A DNA stretch of 64,000 nt from Kiritimatiellia bacterium (lineage in GTDB: Bacteria > Verrucomicrobiota > Kiritimatiellia > CAIQIC01 > Lenti-01): positions 1,877 through 65,876 of the forward strand of contig JAFTAH010000138.1 of the NCBI GenBank assembly GCA_017458625.1. Direction: 5' to 3'. A model generated the notes under the pieces. The model saw only the letters and a list, made by a program, of their open reading frames with translations, was not told where the DNA came from and did no database searches. The position numbers and the translations under genes were made by a program. Of the stretch, positions 12,055 to 39,332 are shown one piece after another (within the stretch, counting starts at the first letter, position 1; each line of letters starts with the position of its first letter).

Positions 12055-12070
12055 GTGATTTTACGTCAAA
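12055..12070 (+). repeat. Polar intergenic motif copy
   Basis: GTGATTTTACGTCAAACATTGGGTTTTTG. Confidence 0.9.
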
Positions 12071-20236: not shown

Positions 20237-20342
20237 GCCCCCTGCCCTGGCCTTGGCCCGTCTTTTCTCTGGCCGCGGGACCGTCGTGCTCCGCGCTCAC
20301 CCCCCATCGCCCCCGGCTTCCGAACGAACAGCTTCTTTGGAC

Positions 20343-20370
20343 TTGGCAAGCCTTTTTGACATGCTATGCT
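20343..20370 (+). promoter_or_regulatory. Possible sigma70 promoter
   Basis: TTGGCA-16-TATGCT with extended TG. Confidence 0.4.
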
Positions 20371-20377
20371 CAAAGCC

Positions 20378-22741
20378 ATGTCCAAGTATGACCAAATCCT
20401 CTTGCTGGCTTTATCGTTTTTCGGCTTGCTGAAAACAGATGCCGCTGCAATTCCGCAGAGAGACGAGGGGGTCGCGCCCGAATTTCGGAACCAGCCCGCC
20501 TCCCACGTGACCAGCAAAACCTTTGGCCCGACGCGTTCCACCAGTGTTTTCAAGGGAGCGTTTCAAGTCGACTTGGTCATCATCTCGTTCGCGGACTGCA
20601 AAGTGCCCGAACCGGAAACCGTCAGAAACGCCCTGAATGTCATCCGGGGCTCGACCGTGTCCGATTATTACAAGGAATATTCGCAGGGCATCACCTGGCC
20701 CGTCCTTGCGGCCTACCCTGCGGTCTATGTGGACAAACAACCACTCGGATACTACTGCCGCCACGCCCCGGCGGCCAACATGGTTGGCTGGACGTCCATC
20801 GACGACGGGGTTGCAAGAGCCGCCATGCTGCGCAAAAACGCCCTTCAGTTTGTCCGCAGGCTTTCCGGAAGGTTCACGCCGGGGAAAGTGACATGCTTTG
20901 TCTACTGCCGGGAACTGGGCCGGGGCTCCCCGGCGATGGAGAAATGCTTGCGGCCATTCTATCCCAAACCCACGGAAAAACAACTGCTTGCCGGAGCAGT
21001 TGACCCTCTCACGACCTATAATCCGGAAATTCCATGGGCTGATCCCTTGTGGCCCAACTCCCGCCCACAGGTTTTCTACCCGGCGGATGGAAGCACAATC
21101 GTCCATGAACTTGGCCATGTGCTGGGGGCTCCTGACTTCTATCACGCCACGGAAAAATATGATGGGCTGCCCGGCACGCCCACCCTGCCATGGGCCTGGG
21201 GACCGACCGGCCCTGCATACTGCCGCACTATCTACCAGGCCTTCGCGCCTCCGGCCGCCTATCCATTCCTCGACAAGCCCGGAACCTACATGCTCGGGCC
21301 CCGATCCGGGGCATTCCCGTTTTCTTTCGCCAGCAGGGCAGAGGAGGAAGCCGCTCTGCCCTTGGGCTTCTTCATCCCTTCGGCCCATCCCAATTATCTC
21401 TTCTGCGTCGAGTTCGTCTACGACGAGAAGCCGCCCATTGGCACGCCGGGCTATTATGGCCTGCTCATCCATCTCATCAATGTCACCATGGACTCGCCCA
21501 CCCTGGGACCGCCAGACAAATGCTACACCTACCGTCCGGACGACCCGTTCTTCCGCGCGCTGAAGGCCGACTGGCCGCCCGCCCTGCTCCACGATGGCGA
21601 TGTGTTCGACGACTCCTCCAATCCTCGCGCCATCCTGCCCAACCAGTTGCCCGCCGGCATCGCCATCCGCAATATCGAATTGGGCTATGGAATGGCCTCG
21701 TTCTCTCTCGAGTTCCAGCCCAACACGCTGTCCTCTTTCCAGCTCCACCAGTCGCTCCTGCCGATCATCAAGCTGACGGGCATCGACGAAATTGGAGCAA
21801 CCTCCTTCCGCGCCCATGCCGATGTCATCTACCGGGGGGAACCGCTCCTGACCGAATATGGTTTCTGCTACGGTCCCACGCCACATCCAACCGTGACCAG
21901 CGGACGATTCCCCCTCTACCATCGCGACCGGTACGATGCGCGGATCATCGATTGCAAGCCCGGCGCAACCCTCCATGTGCGAGCCTACGCACAATCCGAA
22001 CGCGGCATCGCCTATTCTGCGGAAGAACAGACCGTCACTCTGCCCACGCCCGAAAAAGTCACGACGGTTCCACCGCTGCTAACCGATCACCTGCTGGGAA
22101 ACGCTTTCATCACTCGATGGCATTACTCACGTGGCGACCAGGCGAGGGACACGGCTTCCGCCCAAGTGACCCTCATGTCATTGGCCGCCTACTATCATGT
22201 TGTGCCCGGCGGATCCCAGGCGGTGAAGGGACCATTCACCCGCCTGAACCTCTGGCGCATGCATACATCCCCATCGTTGTCGCGGCCAGATTTCCGCATG
22301 GTGGAGGAAGAGGCGATGCGCACCGGGATGCGCTCCGTCGCGGTGGCGGCAGGCCTGTGCAACCATCGGTTCGGCGACTTCAAGACATGGGCAAGAACGT
22401 GCGCCTCTCGCTTGAAAATCCCGTCGCCGGGCACCAACATCATTCGCGTGAGCCCGCAGGACATTGAGACCCACGCCCCACGCATCAAGGAATGGCTCCG
22501 TCATGCCCAGCCGGTCCTGCTGGTCCGCGAAAGCAAGCAGACCGTCTGGGAAACCACCCACATCACCTGGCCCCTCGACATCGCCATCCTCGATGGCTTC
22601 AATGCCAACGGACAATTCCATGTCGCCTTCCCCCTTGGCTCTGACCGTGGCAACCAGCATCGCAAGTCCGGCTACTACAGCCTGCCCGACCTCTTGCTTG
22701 ACACCACGGATTCCTGCCTCATGTTCTACCGTCCCCGGTAA
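20378..22741 (+). CDS. Secreted M6-like zinc metalloprotease with Fn3-like and degenerate C10-peptidase-like domains
   Basis: Signal peptide; VSDYYKEYSQG; HELGHVLGAPDFY; GEPLLTEYGFCY...VRAYA; weaker GC3 than neighbours. Confidence 0.7.
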   Translation: MSKYDQILLLALSFFGLLKTDAAAIPQRDEGVAPEFRNQPASHVTSKTFGPTRSTSVFKGAFQVDLVIISFADCKVPEPETVRNALNVIRGSTVSDYYKEYSQGITWPVLAAYPAVYVDKQPLGYYCRHAPAANMVGWTSIDDGVARAAMLRKNALQFVRRLSGRFTPGKVTCFVYCRELGRGSPAMEKCLRPFYPKPTEKQLLAGAVDPLTTYNPEIPWADPLWPNSRPQVFYPADGSTIVHELGHVLGAPDFYHATEKYDGLPGTPTLPWAWGPTGPAYCRTIYQAFAPPAAYPFLDKPGTYMLGPRSGAFPFSFASRAEEEAALPLGFFIPSAHPNYLFCVEFVYDEKPPIGTPGYYGLLIHLINVTMDSPTLGPPDKCYTYRPDDPFFRALKADWPPALLHDGDVFDDSSNPRAILPNQLPAGIAIRNIELGYGMASFSLEFQPNTLSSFQLHQSLLPIIKLTGIDEIGATSFRAHADVIYRGEPLLTEYGFCYGPTPHPTVTSGRFPLYHRDRYDARIIDCKPGATLHVRAYAQSERGIAYSAEEQTVTLPTPEKVTTVPPLLTDHLLGNAFITRWHYSRGDQARDTASAQVTLMSLAAYYHVVPGGSQAVKGPFTRLNLWRMHTSPSLSRPDFRMVEEEAMRTGMRSVAVAAGLCNHRFGDFKTWARTCASRLKIPSPGTNIIRVSPQDIETHAPRIKEWLRHAQPVLLVRESKQTVWETTHITWPLDIAILDGFNANGQFHVAFPLGSDRGNQHRKSGYYSLPDLLLDTTDSCLMFYRPR

Positions 22742-22809
22742 CCCCTGAAGCTCGCCCCCTCCCCTCCCTCTCCCTCCCTCTCCCCCCGCTTTTCGCCCCT
22801 CAAATTGTA

Positions 22810-22825
22810 GTGATTTCACGTCAAA
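22810..22825 (+). repeat. Polar intergenic motif copy
   Basis: GTGATTTCACGTCAAAACATTGGTTTTTTG. Confidence 0.9.
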
Positions 22826-23061
22826 ACATTGGTTTTTTGCCTGTTTTCCCTTTCCCACGCCCTTGCCTCCCGGGGGTGCGCCCCCCCCGTTCTTCGCCCT
22901 CCGCCCCCCTCGCCCCCTCTTCGCCGTCCCCCTTTGTCCCCCCTCGCCCCCATCGTCCCCATTGTCCCCGCCGTCCTCTCCCCGCCCCTTCGTCCTCCTC
23001 CTCTCCACCTGTCCCAGTGGTCACAGCCCCCCCATGCGCCTTTCCCCGTCCCCCAATTATC

Positions 23062-23080
23062 GTGATTTCACGTGAAAACA
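23062..23080 (+). repeat. Polar motif copy, variant with perfect TTTCACGTGAAA palindrome
   Basis: GTGATTTCACGTGAAAACA. Confidence 0.85.
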
Positions 23081-23159
23081 ATCCCATTATTCCTTTTTTC
23101 TTGCCTTCCCCGTCTCTCTATGTAATCATCCGTTCATCATCAACGAAAGGATGCCTCCC

Positions 23160-23912
23160 ATGCCCCGCAACCGCCACCCCTTCGCCCGCTCCCGCGGCCC
23201 CAACCGCCACTCCCCCGGCTTCTACCACCGCCGCGAGGCACTCGCCCGCGCCGAGGCCGAATACGTCTGCAAGACCTTCCACTTCGGACTTGGCGGCGAC
23301 CTCGCGACCGCATTCGCGGAACTCGTCGTCGGCGGCGCCTGGATGCTGGTGGGCAGCATCTTCCTGCTGGGCATGAATGCCATCAAGGCGCAGACGTCCA
23401 GACACCGCCGGGCCGCCATGGAGCGCCAGATGGCCCAGGCCAACCTCCCCACCCCCGCCGCACTCGAGGCCCGCTGGCACCGCACCAGGCGCAAGTCGCT
23501 CCAGGAGGCCTTGCGCCTCGGTGCCATGCTCATGCAGATTGCCGACACCACCTCCAACACGATTCAGCTGGACAAGAACGGCAAGCTGGCCGGGCGTGGC
23601 GCCGGACTGAAAGGCTGGCTACAGGCCTATTGCCCCAGCATCCCCTATCCGACCGCCATGCGGTACAAACGGATGGCTGAACGTTTGCTGATGCTCCTCT
23701 CCATCGAGGGCAAAGGGGCAGGTGTCGCGATGGATTGGGTTCTGCCAAAAGCCAGTCAGCCCTCCCCTCGAACCCAGATCCCAGGCAAGGCGGGCCGGGA
23801 GATTGCCCAGATCCAGGCCTGCGTGGGCAAGCTCCTCGAATTTCACCCCAGCCAGCGGAGCCTGCTCGCCCTGCTGAAGCGGGCGCTGGTCCGGGCAGGA
23901 AAACTCGCGTAG
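23160..23912 (+). CDS. Hypothetical basic protein with DUF3102-like segment
   Basis: SD GAAAGGA 8 nt before ATG 23160; LRLGAML...GLKGWLQAYCPSIPYPTAMRYKRMAE resembles the DUF3102 G.W..WL...C......A.RYM..A pattern. Confidence 0.6.
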   Translation: MPRNRHPFARSRGPNRHSPGFYHRREALARAEAEYVCKTFHFGLGGDLATAFAELVVGGAWMLVGSIFLLGMNAIKAQTSRHRRAAMERQMAQANLPTPAALEARWHRTRRKSLQEALRLGAMLMQIADTTSNTIQLDKNGKLAGRGAGLKGWLQAYCPSIPYPTAMRYKRMAERLLMLLSIEGKGAGVAMDWVLPKASQPSPRTQIPGKAGREIAQIQACVGKLLEFHPSQRSLLALLKRALVRAGKLA

Positions 23913-23940
23913 GGAAAAGTGAATTATATGAATTATCGTG

Positions 23941-23959
23941 TGTTTTCACATAGAATCAT
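23941..23959 (-). repeat. Polar motif copy, reverse orientation, degenerate
   Basis: Minus strand CTCCAAAAGCT-ATGATTCTATGTGAAAACA. Confidence 0.7.
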
Positions 23960-24128
23960 AGCTTTTGGAGGCTCCGGGGAACCGCATGTCCGCGCGCCAT
24001 ACAGGACACGGTGCGAGGCCTTTTGACTTCACCTCGGCCACCGCGAATTGGGCATTGCACCGCCTGCCAGGGAAACGCTAGAATAGCGAGGTGGCCAAGG
24101 TTTTGGCTACAGCGAAAGGACAGACGAG

Positions 24129-25553
24129 ATGCAAATCCAGGTTGCGGACCAGCGGGCACAGGACATCATCGAACGATTTCTGGAGATTGCGGCCATTCCG
24201 CGCGCCTCCGGCCACGAAGGTGCCCTCGCGCAATACCTCCTGGACTGGGCGGCCGCGCGACATCTCCGGTCCGAGCAGGACAAGGCAGGAAACGTCCGCA
24301 TCGACCTGCCCGCGACCGCCGGCCGTGCCGCCGAGGGGGCCATCCTCCTCCAGGCGCACATGGACATGGTGGCGGCCCCGGATCCCGACGGCGTGCCAGC
24401 ACCCGTCCTCGCCCCCGATGGCAAGACCCTCCGCGCCCGCCACTCGACGCTAGGCGCGGACGACGGCATCGGCATCGCCATCATCCTCTCCATCCTGGAC
24501 AGCCCCCCCGCCAGCCATCCCGCCCTCCGCGCCCTGTTCACCGTCGAGGAGGAGACCACGATGGCCGGCGCCGAAGCCCTGTCCCCGGACTGGCTGGCAG
24601 ACGCGCAAGGCCTCCTGAACATCGACTGGGAGGAAGCCGGCGTCGCCTGCGTGGCCTCGGCCGGCTGCAAGCTCCTGACCCTCAGCCGCATGTTCGAGAG
24701 TTGGACGCCCGTCTCAGCCGCCCACGCCTACTCCGTCGCACTGCGCGATTTCCCCGGCGGCCATTCGGGGCTGGACATCGGCCGCGGCATCCCGAATCCG
24801 GTGCTGGTGCTGGCCCGCGCCATGTCGCTAGGCCTGGAGGTGCTCGCCCCCCGGCTTCACGCCTTTGTCGGCGGATCCGCGCACAACGCCATCCCCCAGA
24901 ACGCCATCGCGACCTTCACCTCCGACCATCCCGAGACGCCCCGCTACCTGACCGTCCTCCGCGCGGCCCTGCTGGCGAGCGCCCCGCCGCAGGCCTCCAT
25001 CCCGGTCGGCCCCCTTGGCACTGCGGCGCGAGCCAGCGTGCTCTGCCTTTCTGCGGCCGACTCGGCACTTTTCCTACAGTTCCTGGGCCAATGTCCTGCC
25101 GGGGTGCTCAAGGCCAACGCCGACGGCTCGCCCGCCATCTCTGCCAACGTCGGCATCGCCTCCCTGATGAACGCCGTCCCCGACGCCCCCGCCCAAGTCG
25201 TCGTCAACATCCGGGCCCACGAGACCGCCGAACTCGACGAATGGTGTGCCGTCTACCGCCGCCTCGGCGCGGAATACGGCTTCGACTGCTCTGCCCCGCA
25301 GGGTGCCCCGCCCTGGAACCAGAAGCCCTCCGCCTGGGTCGACCGCGTCCTCGCCCTGGGCGGCGCGGGCTGGCGGGCCGTCAAGGCGCATGTCGGCCTC
25401 GAATGTTCCGCCTTCGCCCAAAAGGCCCCCGACCTGCCGCTGGTCTCCATCGGCCCCACCGTCCTCCACCCCCACTCCCTCGCCGAAACCTTGGACACCG
25501 ACACCGTCGCCGACATCGCCATCCTCATCCGCACCGTCATCGCAGACACCTAG
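24129..25553 (+). CDS. pepD: M20 family dipeptidase (PepD-like)
   Basis: IPRASGHE, LLQAHMDMV, TLGADDGIG, FTVEEE, GGHSG, HVGLEC, SIGP...PHS. Confidence 0.85.
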   Translation: MQIQVADQRAQDIIERFLEIAAIPRASGHEGALAQYLLDWAAARHLRSEQDKAGNVRIDLPATAGRAAEGAILLQAHMDMVAAPDPDGVPAPVLAPDGKTLRARHSTLGADDGIGIAIILSILDSPPASHPALRALFTVEEETTMAGAEALSPDWLADAQGLLNIDWEEAGVACVASAGCKLLTLSRMFESWTPVSAAHAYSVALRDFPGGHSGLDIGRGIPNPVLVLARAMSLGLEVLAPRLHAFVGGSAHNAIPQNAIATFTSDHPETPRYLTVLRAALLASAPPQASIPVGPLGTAARASVLCLSAADSALFLQFLGQCPAGVLKANADGSPAISANVGIASLMNAVPDAPAQVVVNIRAHETAELDEWCAVYRRLGAEYGFDCSAPQGAPPWNQKPSAWVDRVLALGGAGWRAVKAHVGLECSAFAQKAPDLPLVSIGPTVLHPHSLAETLDTDTVADIAILIRTVIADT

Positions 25554-27883: not shown

Positions 27884-27899
27884 GTGATTTCACGTCAAA
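27884..27899 (+). repeat. Polar motif copy, with a second degenerate core GTAATCTCACGTGA at ~27906
   Basis: GTGATTTCACGTCAAA between convergent genes. Confidence 0.85.
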
Positions 27900-28035
27900 A
27901 CCCACGTAATCTCACGTGATTATCTCTTGTCGCGGCGAGGAGGGGGCGCATCTCGCGCCCCGGCCTACGAAGTGAACCCCCTTTCCGCCACAACCCGTCC
28001 GACGGAAACAGCCACGGCTTTATCGAAACCAGCGC

Positions 28036-38404: not shown

Positions 38405-39332
38405 GTCGTTCATGCAAAACCCGTTTTGAGTCCCGAAGCGTGGTCGGGACGGGGGCGTGAGGGGGGGGCATCGGCGAGGAGAGCCGTCGGCGGAATCAGG
38501 CTGCCTGCGAGGGGGCAGGCCAGGCCATCGGAAGGGGGCGGGGGAAAAGGCACAAAAAGAGGCGCTTGAGCCCCTTCATCAGCTTGCGGAGGTTGAAGCC
38601 GACGGCGGTCAGCAGGGCGTGGAGGGCGTCGCCCTGTCTTCCTGCGAGTCGGCAGCGGCCTTCGCGGGAGTGGTCCTCCCGTACGTGCCCGATGACCGGT
38701 TCGATGGCGCTGCGCCGCTTCCACCAGCGTAGCAGGCTCCGGTCCGGAGTCTTCCTGAAGCGGTTCACGATCTGGATGTCGCACGATCCGTCGTAGCCGC
38801 TCTTCCGGTATCCCAGGTCGGCGCAGGCCTGTTTCGGGGCCACGCCGGTGATCCGCTCCGCCTGCTCCAGGGACAGCTGGAGGGTGTGTCCGTCGTAGGG
38901 ATTGCCCGGGAACGTCTGCGCCCCGAGGATCCAGCAGGAGCGCGCGCTCGTCACCAGCCCCGTTTTCACCCCGAACTCGTAGCGTTTGCGGGCCTTTCCC
39001 CGCGAGCATCCGGATCGGACACGACGGACGGCCGTTGTCCGGCGAGTAGGCGGGTTCCATGACGGCCTCGAAGCGCGACCAGTCGATGGCCCTGGCAGCA
39101 GGACGAGTTCGTGCTTCGGGTTCACGAGATCGGAAAGCAGGGGCTTCCACAACTGGGTCTGGACCGACTTGGCGGCGGGGCTTTTCGTCATCATTTTTGG
39201 GGGTCACCGGAGAATATCCTTTGTTTTCGCGGGCAACCCTATCAACCCCCCCCCAATTGCACGATAATAATTTATATAAATTATTGTGAACAAATATGTT
39301 ATGGCTCATCAAATAAATTTTTCATAATCGAC
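38405..39332 (-). mobile_element. IS5-family insertion sequence, internally deleted (non-autonomous)
   Basis: Imperfect TIRs GTCGTTCATGCAAAA (38405-38419) and TTTTTCATAATCGAC (39318-39332); AT-rich left end; transposase remnants inside. Confidence 0.8.
38496..39194 (-). pseudogene. IS5 transposase pseudogene
   Basis: N-terminal NPKHELV/IDWSRFE...GRP..PIRMLAG (frameshifted) joined directly to GKARKRYEFG...GNPYDGHTL...ADLGY...RRSAIEPVIGH. Confidence 0.88.

Follow-up and report, generated by a model that had tools for sequence, protein, structure and literature searches.

Genes that lie between inverted copies of a short repeat are known in bacteria from insertion sequences (IS) and their gene-less derivatives, the miniature inverted-repeat transposable elements (MITEs), and from REP-associated tyrosine transposases (RAYTs), whose repetitive extragenic palindromic (REP) sequences are also scattered singly in intergenic DNA. 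Inverted pairs likewise occur in invertible DNA switches, of which many are known in gut bacteria, and repeated sites may serve as operators, as in the case of KorB of plasmid RK2, which binds operators both at promoters and far from them. Here we describe a unit of about 0.9 kb located within a 64,000-nt stretch of contig JAFTAH010000138.1 (hereafter the window), which belongs to a 2.69-Mb, 165-contig, 80%-complete Kiritimatiellia genome (G000; C-numbers denote contigs). The unit comprises one gene enclosed by two inward-facing copies of a short motif. With a probability of about 0.5, we consider it a self-spreading cassette whose protein would bind the motifs at its own ends. A text search of the literature for inverted repeats or insertion sequences of Kiritimatiellia and for the DUF3102 protein family found no description of this system.

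The unit is bounded by GTGATTTCACGTGAAAACA on the plus strand (23062–23080) and ATGATTCTATGTGAAAACA on the minus strand (23959–23941), which a repeat finder reports as an inverted pair of 18 nt with 83% complementarity. Exactly one gene-like open reading frame lies inside the pair (23151/23160–23912). These features, together with a third copy of the motif, GTGATTTCACGTCAAAACA, at 22810–22828 (+), confirm what an earlier inspection of the letters alone (the sequence-only reading) had pointed out. The GTGAAAA variant that it considered specific to the pair is indeed unique to it within the window, but is found genome-wide in gene-less copies as well. The 5′ end element of the unit (23050–23099, +) consists of CCCCCAATTATC, the motif with its palindromic core TTTCACGTGAAA and a T-rich stretch. 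Next comes a putative promoter block (23100–23129, +; CTTGCC, 14 nt, ATGTAATCAT), which is aligned among the copies on C95, C102, C123, C106 and C52. A consensus scan of positions 22700–24200 gave no sigma-70 site at threshold; at the position of this block, more distant lineages carry CTTGAY..TAGAAT. The ribosome-binding site GAAAGGA (23145–23151, +) is kept in the alignment of the copies and lies 8 nt upstream of the second ATG, at 23160, where homologues start. The coding sequence (23160–23912, +) specifies 250 aa; the N-terminus is basic and is followed by a hydrophobic helix and then by a helical domain. The inverted 3′ end element (23915–23972, −) has its motif at 23941–23959 and reads, on the minus strand, CTCCAAAAGCTA and then ATGATTCTATGTGAAAACA. 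Upstream of the unit extends a C-rich, G-poor tract (22742–23049, +), which holds one solo end element (22798–22848, +) built of CAAATTGTA, the motif GTGATTTCACGTCAAAACA and a T-rich tail. This element repeats the 5′ end of the unit in direct orientation: the repeat finder aligned 22798–22848 with 23050–23100 over 51 nt at 75% (family D2). No Rfam family covers the unit, and at gathering scores the window contains only a tRNA.

We found that the gene, initially regarded as an orphan, is nothing of the kind. The window protein has 12 matches on 12 contigs of its own genome, with 42–72% amino-acid identity, and its superfamily pools 561 representatives at E ≤ 0.001. Five of the 12 matches sit at contig ends, the assembly breaking at one identical coding stretch, and therefore the number of diverged copies is given as at least ten. 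The identical 5′ coding stretches of the copies may reflect gene conversion. All assembled flanks in G000 bear the motif. On the 5′ side it lies some 90 nt upstream of the start codon in all seven copies with an assembled flank (degenerate in C158 and C153), and on the 3′ side it is inverted and positioned about 50 nt after the stop codon in all ten; both unit ends have the same T-rich tail. The layout recurs in homologues too. Paralogues and homologues are consistently flanked by motifs, a point that the sequence-only reading had proposed to check. The proposed 0.9-kb unit with the motif as terminal inverted repeats is thus real and recurrent in G000, yet in another genus, g6, the 3′ motif is internal to the unit.

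At the nucleotide level, the copies form two subfamilies (86–91% and 80–92% identity) plus older singletons. The 3′ boundary of the unit is sharp: in the close paralogue pairs C90/C140, C154/C12 and C153/C12 the alignment extends as far as the outer edge of the 3′ motif and no further. In these pairs the short untranslated region that follows the stop codon has diverged, whereas the motif behind it is intact, which indicates that the 3′ motif is constrained in its own right. The ratio of nonsynonymous to synonymous substitutions (dN/dS) is 0.22–0.41 in all 10 paralogue pairs tested; the protein is under purifying selection. According to Pfam, the neighbors of the G000 copies are unrelated housekeeping genes, including those for uridine kinase-like, TolC-like, HypD, PriA, starch synthase, formyltransferase, Mfd and ribosomal protein S2 proteins as well as gspE and gspF, and no recombinase gene was found beside these copies. 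At four units (C102, C123, C12 and C106) we also observed CTAG-rich boxes (TCTAGAATCCTAG and similar) less than 400 nt away, with 2–4 CTAG per 400 nt against a genome average of 0.26. At the window locus, the gene upstream of the unit (20366–22741, +; 791 aa) belongs to no Pfam family at E ≤ 1e-5, and five related genomes gave no match to it.

The selection acting on the gene can also be read differently. The copies could be a host family of paralogous, autoregulated, membrane-tethered DNA-binding proteins, with the motif as an operator made of a −35-proximal site and a distal looping site, the gene-less copies as regulon or architectural sites, and ordinary duplication, not selfish spread, as the source of the copies. 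We rate this as possible, though on the unlikely side. It agrees with the purifying selection on all copies, many of them old, with the partly palindromic core of the motif and with the position of the 5′ motif directly upstream of a −35-like block in all lineages examined. On the other hand, single-gene copies dispersed among housekeeping genes with identical boundaries are unlike the outcome of tandem duplication.

We determined that the two ends of a unit vary together. Among seven two-ended units, the 22-nt ends share 62% identity within a unit versus 47–48% between units, and 28 of the 5040 permuted pairings reach the observed within-unit value; the sample is small (five units from G000 plus one each from the sister species and a metagenome) and the comparison ungapped. 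The C158 unit has GGAT in both ends. In the sister species (G001), the unit is flanked by AATTTCGTGATTTTTCGG and its inverted near-copy and carries TTTTTCGG in both ends, while in a metagenome lineage with 39% protein identity (L046) it is CTGCTGTTTTACGGT that occurs at both ends. If the pair were an old inverted repeat inherited by simple descent, each end should match the same end of related units best, and the reverse is seen. The co-variation suggests that a single factor, itself changing along with the unit, reads both ends.

The distribution of the motif follows that of the gene, a relation that the sequence-only reading had proposed to check: the motif abounds only in genomes with the close gene family, in a version that differs from species to species. 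The G000 version, GTGATTTTACGT(C/G)AAA, has 63 matches with at most one mismatch in G000, with its 12 gene matches, versus 0–3 in each of 40 relatives. G001, which belongs to the same genus, has two gene matches and a different version, CGTGATTTTTCGG, with 38 matches versus 9 in the control, 15 of them at ≤1 mismatch; in G000 the same version gives 12 matches versus 8 in the control and none at ≤1 mismatch. The gene-less copies of the two species have the T-rich 3′ half in common. In genus g6, gene matches number at least 66 in the 3.2-Mb genome of G006 and 46 each in G010 and G014, and the version YGCGATATCAAGGAA is found 135, 57 and 63 times, respectively, versus 0–1 in the control. A family match is present in 8 of 41 genomes of the order. 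The phylum sample gave matches in 20 of 301 genomes, all in the same class. Within one family of genomes the gene copy number ranges from 0 to at least 66, a swing that speaks against the host-operator alternative.

The bracketed architecture is retained where the motif is not. In genus g6, an inward motif pair 853–865 nt apart is found at 12 of 18 loci, and in G309, from another family, perfect inverted pairs of at least 16 nt surround the gene at all three placeable loci, the 5′ motif lying directly upstream of a CTTGAY-N17-TAGAAT block. Since the layout recurs across lineages with their own motifs, it appears to be a property of the gene family, the site sequence drifting with lineage. Among 12 loci from more distant genomes, seven lacked a tblastn hit to the single domain query; one of the same 12 showed nothing but poly-C, and in another no repeat reached 14/16. 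A search for related loci with one family alignment returned one genome locus, in a metagenome-assembled genome of the sister species, and three metagenome loci, while a search with alignment A1 returned nothing in the genome or metagenome collection. At one G309 locus (L099, on C35) tandem repeats occur outside both unit ends, CCGCGCATCCTCGCCCGCGGAACAC on the 5′ side and GGGATCGAACGGACGGACGGA on the 3′ side, echoing the C-rich and G-rich flanks in G000. The 3′ motif of g6 is part of the reading frame, where it encodes PLISR with TTG ATA TCG, codons that are rare for this GC-rich genome. As it is internal to the repeated unit there, the motifs are functional sites that do not always coincide with the physical ends of that unit. 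An internal 3′ site suits an operator better than it does a transposon end.

The sequence-only reading also proposed to look for empty sites in relatives, and one was found, at the gspE|gspF junction. The two genes are 1,213 nt apart in G000, with a unit between them, and about 38 nt (G001), 19 nt (G005) and 15 nt (G003) apart in relatives, as read by eye. A copy inserted into a junction that is tight in three relatives is not what duplicated regulatory genes would predict. The gene-less sites are mobile on the evolutionary scale as well: of eight well-conserved genes next to G001 sites, only two have an orthologue in G000 with a G000 motif at most 1.5 kb away, and thus these sites turn over between species. 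That solo copies are mostly non-orthologous in the sister species (2/8) likewise does not fit a conserved regulon.

These gene-less sites are numerous. The degenerate 16-mer TGATTYYAYGTSAAAA matches the window 17 times at ≤2 mismatches, versus 0.03 expected from shuffles, with 13 matches on the plus and four on the minus strand, one of the latter being an echo of the palindromic core. The whole of G000 has 116 such matches versus none in 1 Mb of shuffled sequence, and a looser 12-mer gives 174 versus 21 in the reversed genome. We found around 100 gene-less single ends and three two-ended mini-elements scattered in the intergenic DNA of G000. In the mini-elements a 5′-type and a 3′-type end are 30–40 nt apart; the one in the window (27884–27915, +; 32 nt) has them back to back, and the others are located at C102:39411–39450 and C133:6458–6497. 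Similar mini-elements are present in the sister species. The consensus of 93 solos is CCCCaAA..g.cGTGATTTTACGTCAAAaa..Ggc.TTTTtgcccaTTTtt, and the DNA around these sites is 42–53% C on the same strand.

The orientation of the solos is independent of the genes beside them, the upstream gene running in the same direction at 55 sites and in the opposite direction at 45, which is again unexpected of operators. We regard the host-operator family as the main rival of a self-spreading cassette: it explains the promoter-proximal 5′ site and the internal 3′ site of g6, but not the dispersal, the insertion or the turnover of sites. A promoter or terminator role of the motif was considered separately and rejected, as its orientation is independent of neighboring genes and the scan gave no consensus sites. 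A role as a hairpin was rejected too, because none of four elements folded as DNA gave a stable structure (z −0.43, −0.87, −0.93 and −1.87). Solo polarity along the chromosome is not explained by gene direction; it follows regional GC skew, 110 of 154 sites lying on the C-rich strand (skew over ±10 kb, excluding ±400 nt). Some solos occur in tandem, as in one intergenic stretch of the window where three direct copies (56427, 56659 and 56832, +) are 232 and 173 nt apart; similar sets are found on C151 and C30. A palindrome, TTCCA-N3-5-ATGGAA, often followed by CATGTTTC, gave 355 strand-hits in the genome versus none in the reversed control. It is present at positions 1440, 2799, 30905 and 30937 of the window and forms short arrays, both next to some solos and, at the metagenome units L045–L047, about 180 nt beyond the 3′ end.

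The caveat that ordinary genes may also be enclosed by inward-facing copies still stands. We found 14 such pairs 1.3–5 kb apart, and six genes are singly enclosed by them: those for LpxK, PBP, FadL, SLT, a disaggregatase-like protein and a product without a Pfam family. These wider pairs bear on a further alternative, namely that a recombinase or transposase with its gene elsewhere acts on the inverted motifs, as in mobile insertion cassettes and Xer-dependent dif modules, and that the enclosed gene is selected cargo of a non-autonomous cassette. A protein lacking a catalytic signature would be expected of cargo, gene-less two-ended mini-elements exist, and G000 does encode candidate helpers (6 Y1_Tnp and 3 DDE_Tnp_1 matches). 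Yet, none of the six singly enclosed genes is a transposase gene, and each of eight Y1/DDE loci has only 0–1 core hits within 4 kb, with no gene bracketed (PF01797 and PF01609 were the families searched, so a helper of another kind may be missed). Moreover, across the lineages examined the enclosed gene is always of this family, and the site sequence changes along with it, which is unexpected of cargo. We therefore hold this alternative to be quite improbable. The window itself also contains a weak DDE_Tnp_1 match (38604–39005, −; 26.8 bits, in a 235-aa frame) without a flanking motif.

The window protein, numbered from the 23151 start, has a hydrophobic helix at about residues 51–75 and a helical domain at about residues 91–253. 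In agreement with the initial impression that it has no DDE, tyrosine- or serine-recombinase signature, searches against Pfam, NCBIfam, PHROGs and PADLOC found no transposase, recombinase or nuclease domain. A search of solved structures by sequence gave only a chance match (E 0.36). Among 5.8 billion proteins, a word-indexed search retrieved 11 relatives; the exhaustive profile search behind the superfamily gave eight representatives at E ≤ 1e-30, with a common region at about residues 80–185, and no consistent Pfam family was found among 146 members. Most superfamily members have a hydrophobic helix and basic residues ahead of the domain. The helix probably anchors these proteins in the membrane, the domain being cytoplasmic. 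The full-length structure model is poor (predicted local distance difference test, pLDDT, 67.4), and its fold search returned only long helices, while the domain model built from 146 sequences reaches pLDDT 93.6 and a predicted template modeling score (pTM) of 0.87. Foldseek gave nothing for the domain model at E ≤ 0.001 in the pdb or viral sets. With VIA-align the best Z was 4.9, and 6 of the 50 best rows are DNA-binding domains of KorB/ParB/VirB type with Z 3.3–4.8: 1r71 (Z 4.8, 87 residues, root-mean-square deviation 3.7), 1vz0 (4.5), 6s6h (4.4), 1zx4 (3.5), and 3vwb and 8qa8 (both 3.3). The weak likeness to KorB would fit an operator-binding host protein as well.

The description of the protein as DUF3102-like goes too far, as only a protein language model picks up the resemblance. 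In the ESM Atlas language model, 28 of 30 named neighbors belong to DUF3102-bearing clusters (top score 0.95, 179 shared features), and the segment GLKGWL..CPSIPY.TAMRYK resembles the DUF3102 signature. Profile methods, on the contrary, do not support the assignment. PF11300 gave no match to the window protein at E ≤ 10, none among the 146 members at E ≤ 1 and none genome-wide in G000. With hhalign, family alignment A2 against five true DUF3102 members reached a probability of 0.45% (E 0.13, 23 columns), exactly the above segment being aligned, and alignment A1 against one DUF3102 protein 0.1%. A helix-turn-helix-like DNA-binding role of the protein is plausible. A true DUF3102 protein (213 aa, 28.4 bits) is encoded in the sister species at L036:1396–2037 (on C135), about 5 kb from its unit, and hhalign found no detectable relation between this protein and the family.

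Taken together, the unit would be one copy of a lineage-restricted, self-propagating gene cassette laid out as a C-rich tract, an end motif, a promoter of its own, one gene and an inverted end motif. Its protein, with the hydrophobic helix and a helical domain containing a helix-turn-helix-like segment, would bind the partly palindromic motif at both unit ends, probably as a dimer. The 5′ motif lies directly upstream of the presumed −35 region. Binding might serve spread, autoregulation or both. The cassette would have been copied into intergenic DNA between unrelated housekeeping genes, and the two-ended mini-elements and, more tentatively, the single ends would derive from units. A more specific version, in which the protein is a new transposition or DNA-mobilizing protein restricted to Kiritimatiellia, acting on its own ends through a DUF3102/KorB-like helix-turn-helix with no known catalytic fold, perhaps recruiting host replication or repair at C-rich tracts and leaving the solos as footprints, seems unlikely to us.

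Several observations weigh against a self-spreading cassette. The copies are old, with 48–92% nucleotide identity, and none are near-identical. In g6, 12 paralogues remain homologous for about 190 nt beyond the 3′ motif, and the homology drops from 0.8 to below 0.4 only after the stop codon. The gspE|gspF insert exceeds the unit, as it also contains C-rich (about 240 nt) and G-rich (about 130 nt) sequence outside the motifs, and it is the single empty site found, gene order being lost at the window's own copy, the C123 copy and the solo at 12056. No target-site duplication was seen by eye at five complete copies, whose left flanks are C-rich and right flanks G-rich. As for the protein, it has no Pfam, NCBIfam or PHROG match, PADLOC recognized none of four proteins, the superfamily alignment contains no invariant acidic residue, a membrane-like helix is unusual for a transposase, and the KorB/ParB fold matches are below the stated noise level of the tool (Z 8). 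Finally, among contigs of four public runs none skips the unit or has a joint across it, and the unit is seen in place.

The same contigs bear on the idea of an invertible DNA switch, in which the inverted pair would be the crossover site of a site-specific recombinase flipping the 0.9-kb segment. An inverted repeat pair around a promoter-bearing segment is what such a switch looks like, but no joint or strand change was found at the pair in the contigs of the four runs, no recombinase gene accompanies the copies, and flipping a self-contained promoter and gene would alter little. As around 100 single ends and the gspE|gspF insertion would also be left unexplained, we give a switch hardly any weight. 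In run X5, positions 20300–23160 are nearly without cover. One 151-nt contig from an RNA library matches positions 23292–23442 exactly, which is not proof of transcription.

If a self-spreading cassette is the correct reading, a whole class of bacteria from gut and rumen harbors a family of one-gene elements enclosed by repeats, for which no database has a name. These elements would break metagenome assemblies, insert between housekeeping genes and fill intergenic DNA with species-specific motifs. Protein-site co-evolution is directly testable in this system, since both ends of each unit bear a motif version particular to that unit. The system may also give a first function to DUF3102-type proteins and, should the protein itself mobilize the unit, a new class of transposition protein.

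Among described systems, DUF3102 (PF11300), a family of unknown function from phages and plasmids, resembles the window protein in the segment G-x-(K/R)-x-W-(L/V), 6–8 residues, T-A-x-R, and 28 of the 30 language-model neighbors are clusters in which 16–42% of members carry DUF3102. In contrast, no superfamily member reaches the Pfam model, and the true DUF3102 gene in the sister species encodes a different protein. As for KorB and ParB, fold rows of their type were retrieved, all at Z values under the noise bar of 8, and partly palindromic sites occur here as well, both at promoters and at a distance from them. According to Pfam, the window protein differs from them in lacking the ParB N-terminal (CTP-binding) domain, and it has a hydrophobic helix and is encoded by a multi-copy gene.

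REP/RAYT systems share with the unit a gene placed within inverted copies of a short repeat that is also scattered singly in intergenic DNA, with an orientation bias along the chromosome. Unlike a RAYT, the window protein is not of the HUH/Y1 type (no PF01797 match), the motif has no stable hairpin (z −0.4 to −1.9), and the gene is present in at least ten copies versus about one. A separate classical RAYT is encoded in G000 at C98:23400–24400 (Y1 transposase, 87 bits to PF01797, 156-aa frame). It has its own REP, GAACCCCTACGGGGTTC, with inverted hairpin repeats GAACCCC(A/G/T)TAGGGGTTC on both sides, unrelated to the motif of the unit.

IS and MITEs differ from the units in several respects. 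The unit has no DDE, HUH, serine or tyrosine transposase domain and no target-site duplication was seen, its copies are old and diverged, and the derivatives are mostly single ends instead of paired ones; in one genus the 3′ repeat is internal, and low-complexity C-rich and G-rich tracts accompany the ends. Nevertheless, the likeness is broad, as the units have inverted repeats at or near both ends, one gene between them and a putative promoter by the left repeat, occur in many dispersed intergenic copies that break assemblies, and are accompanied by gene-less derivatives with the same ends. As in IS and MITEs, these features go together with an empty site in relatives, a patchy distribution and large swings in copy number.

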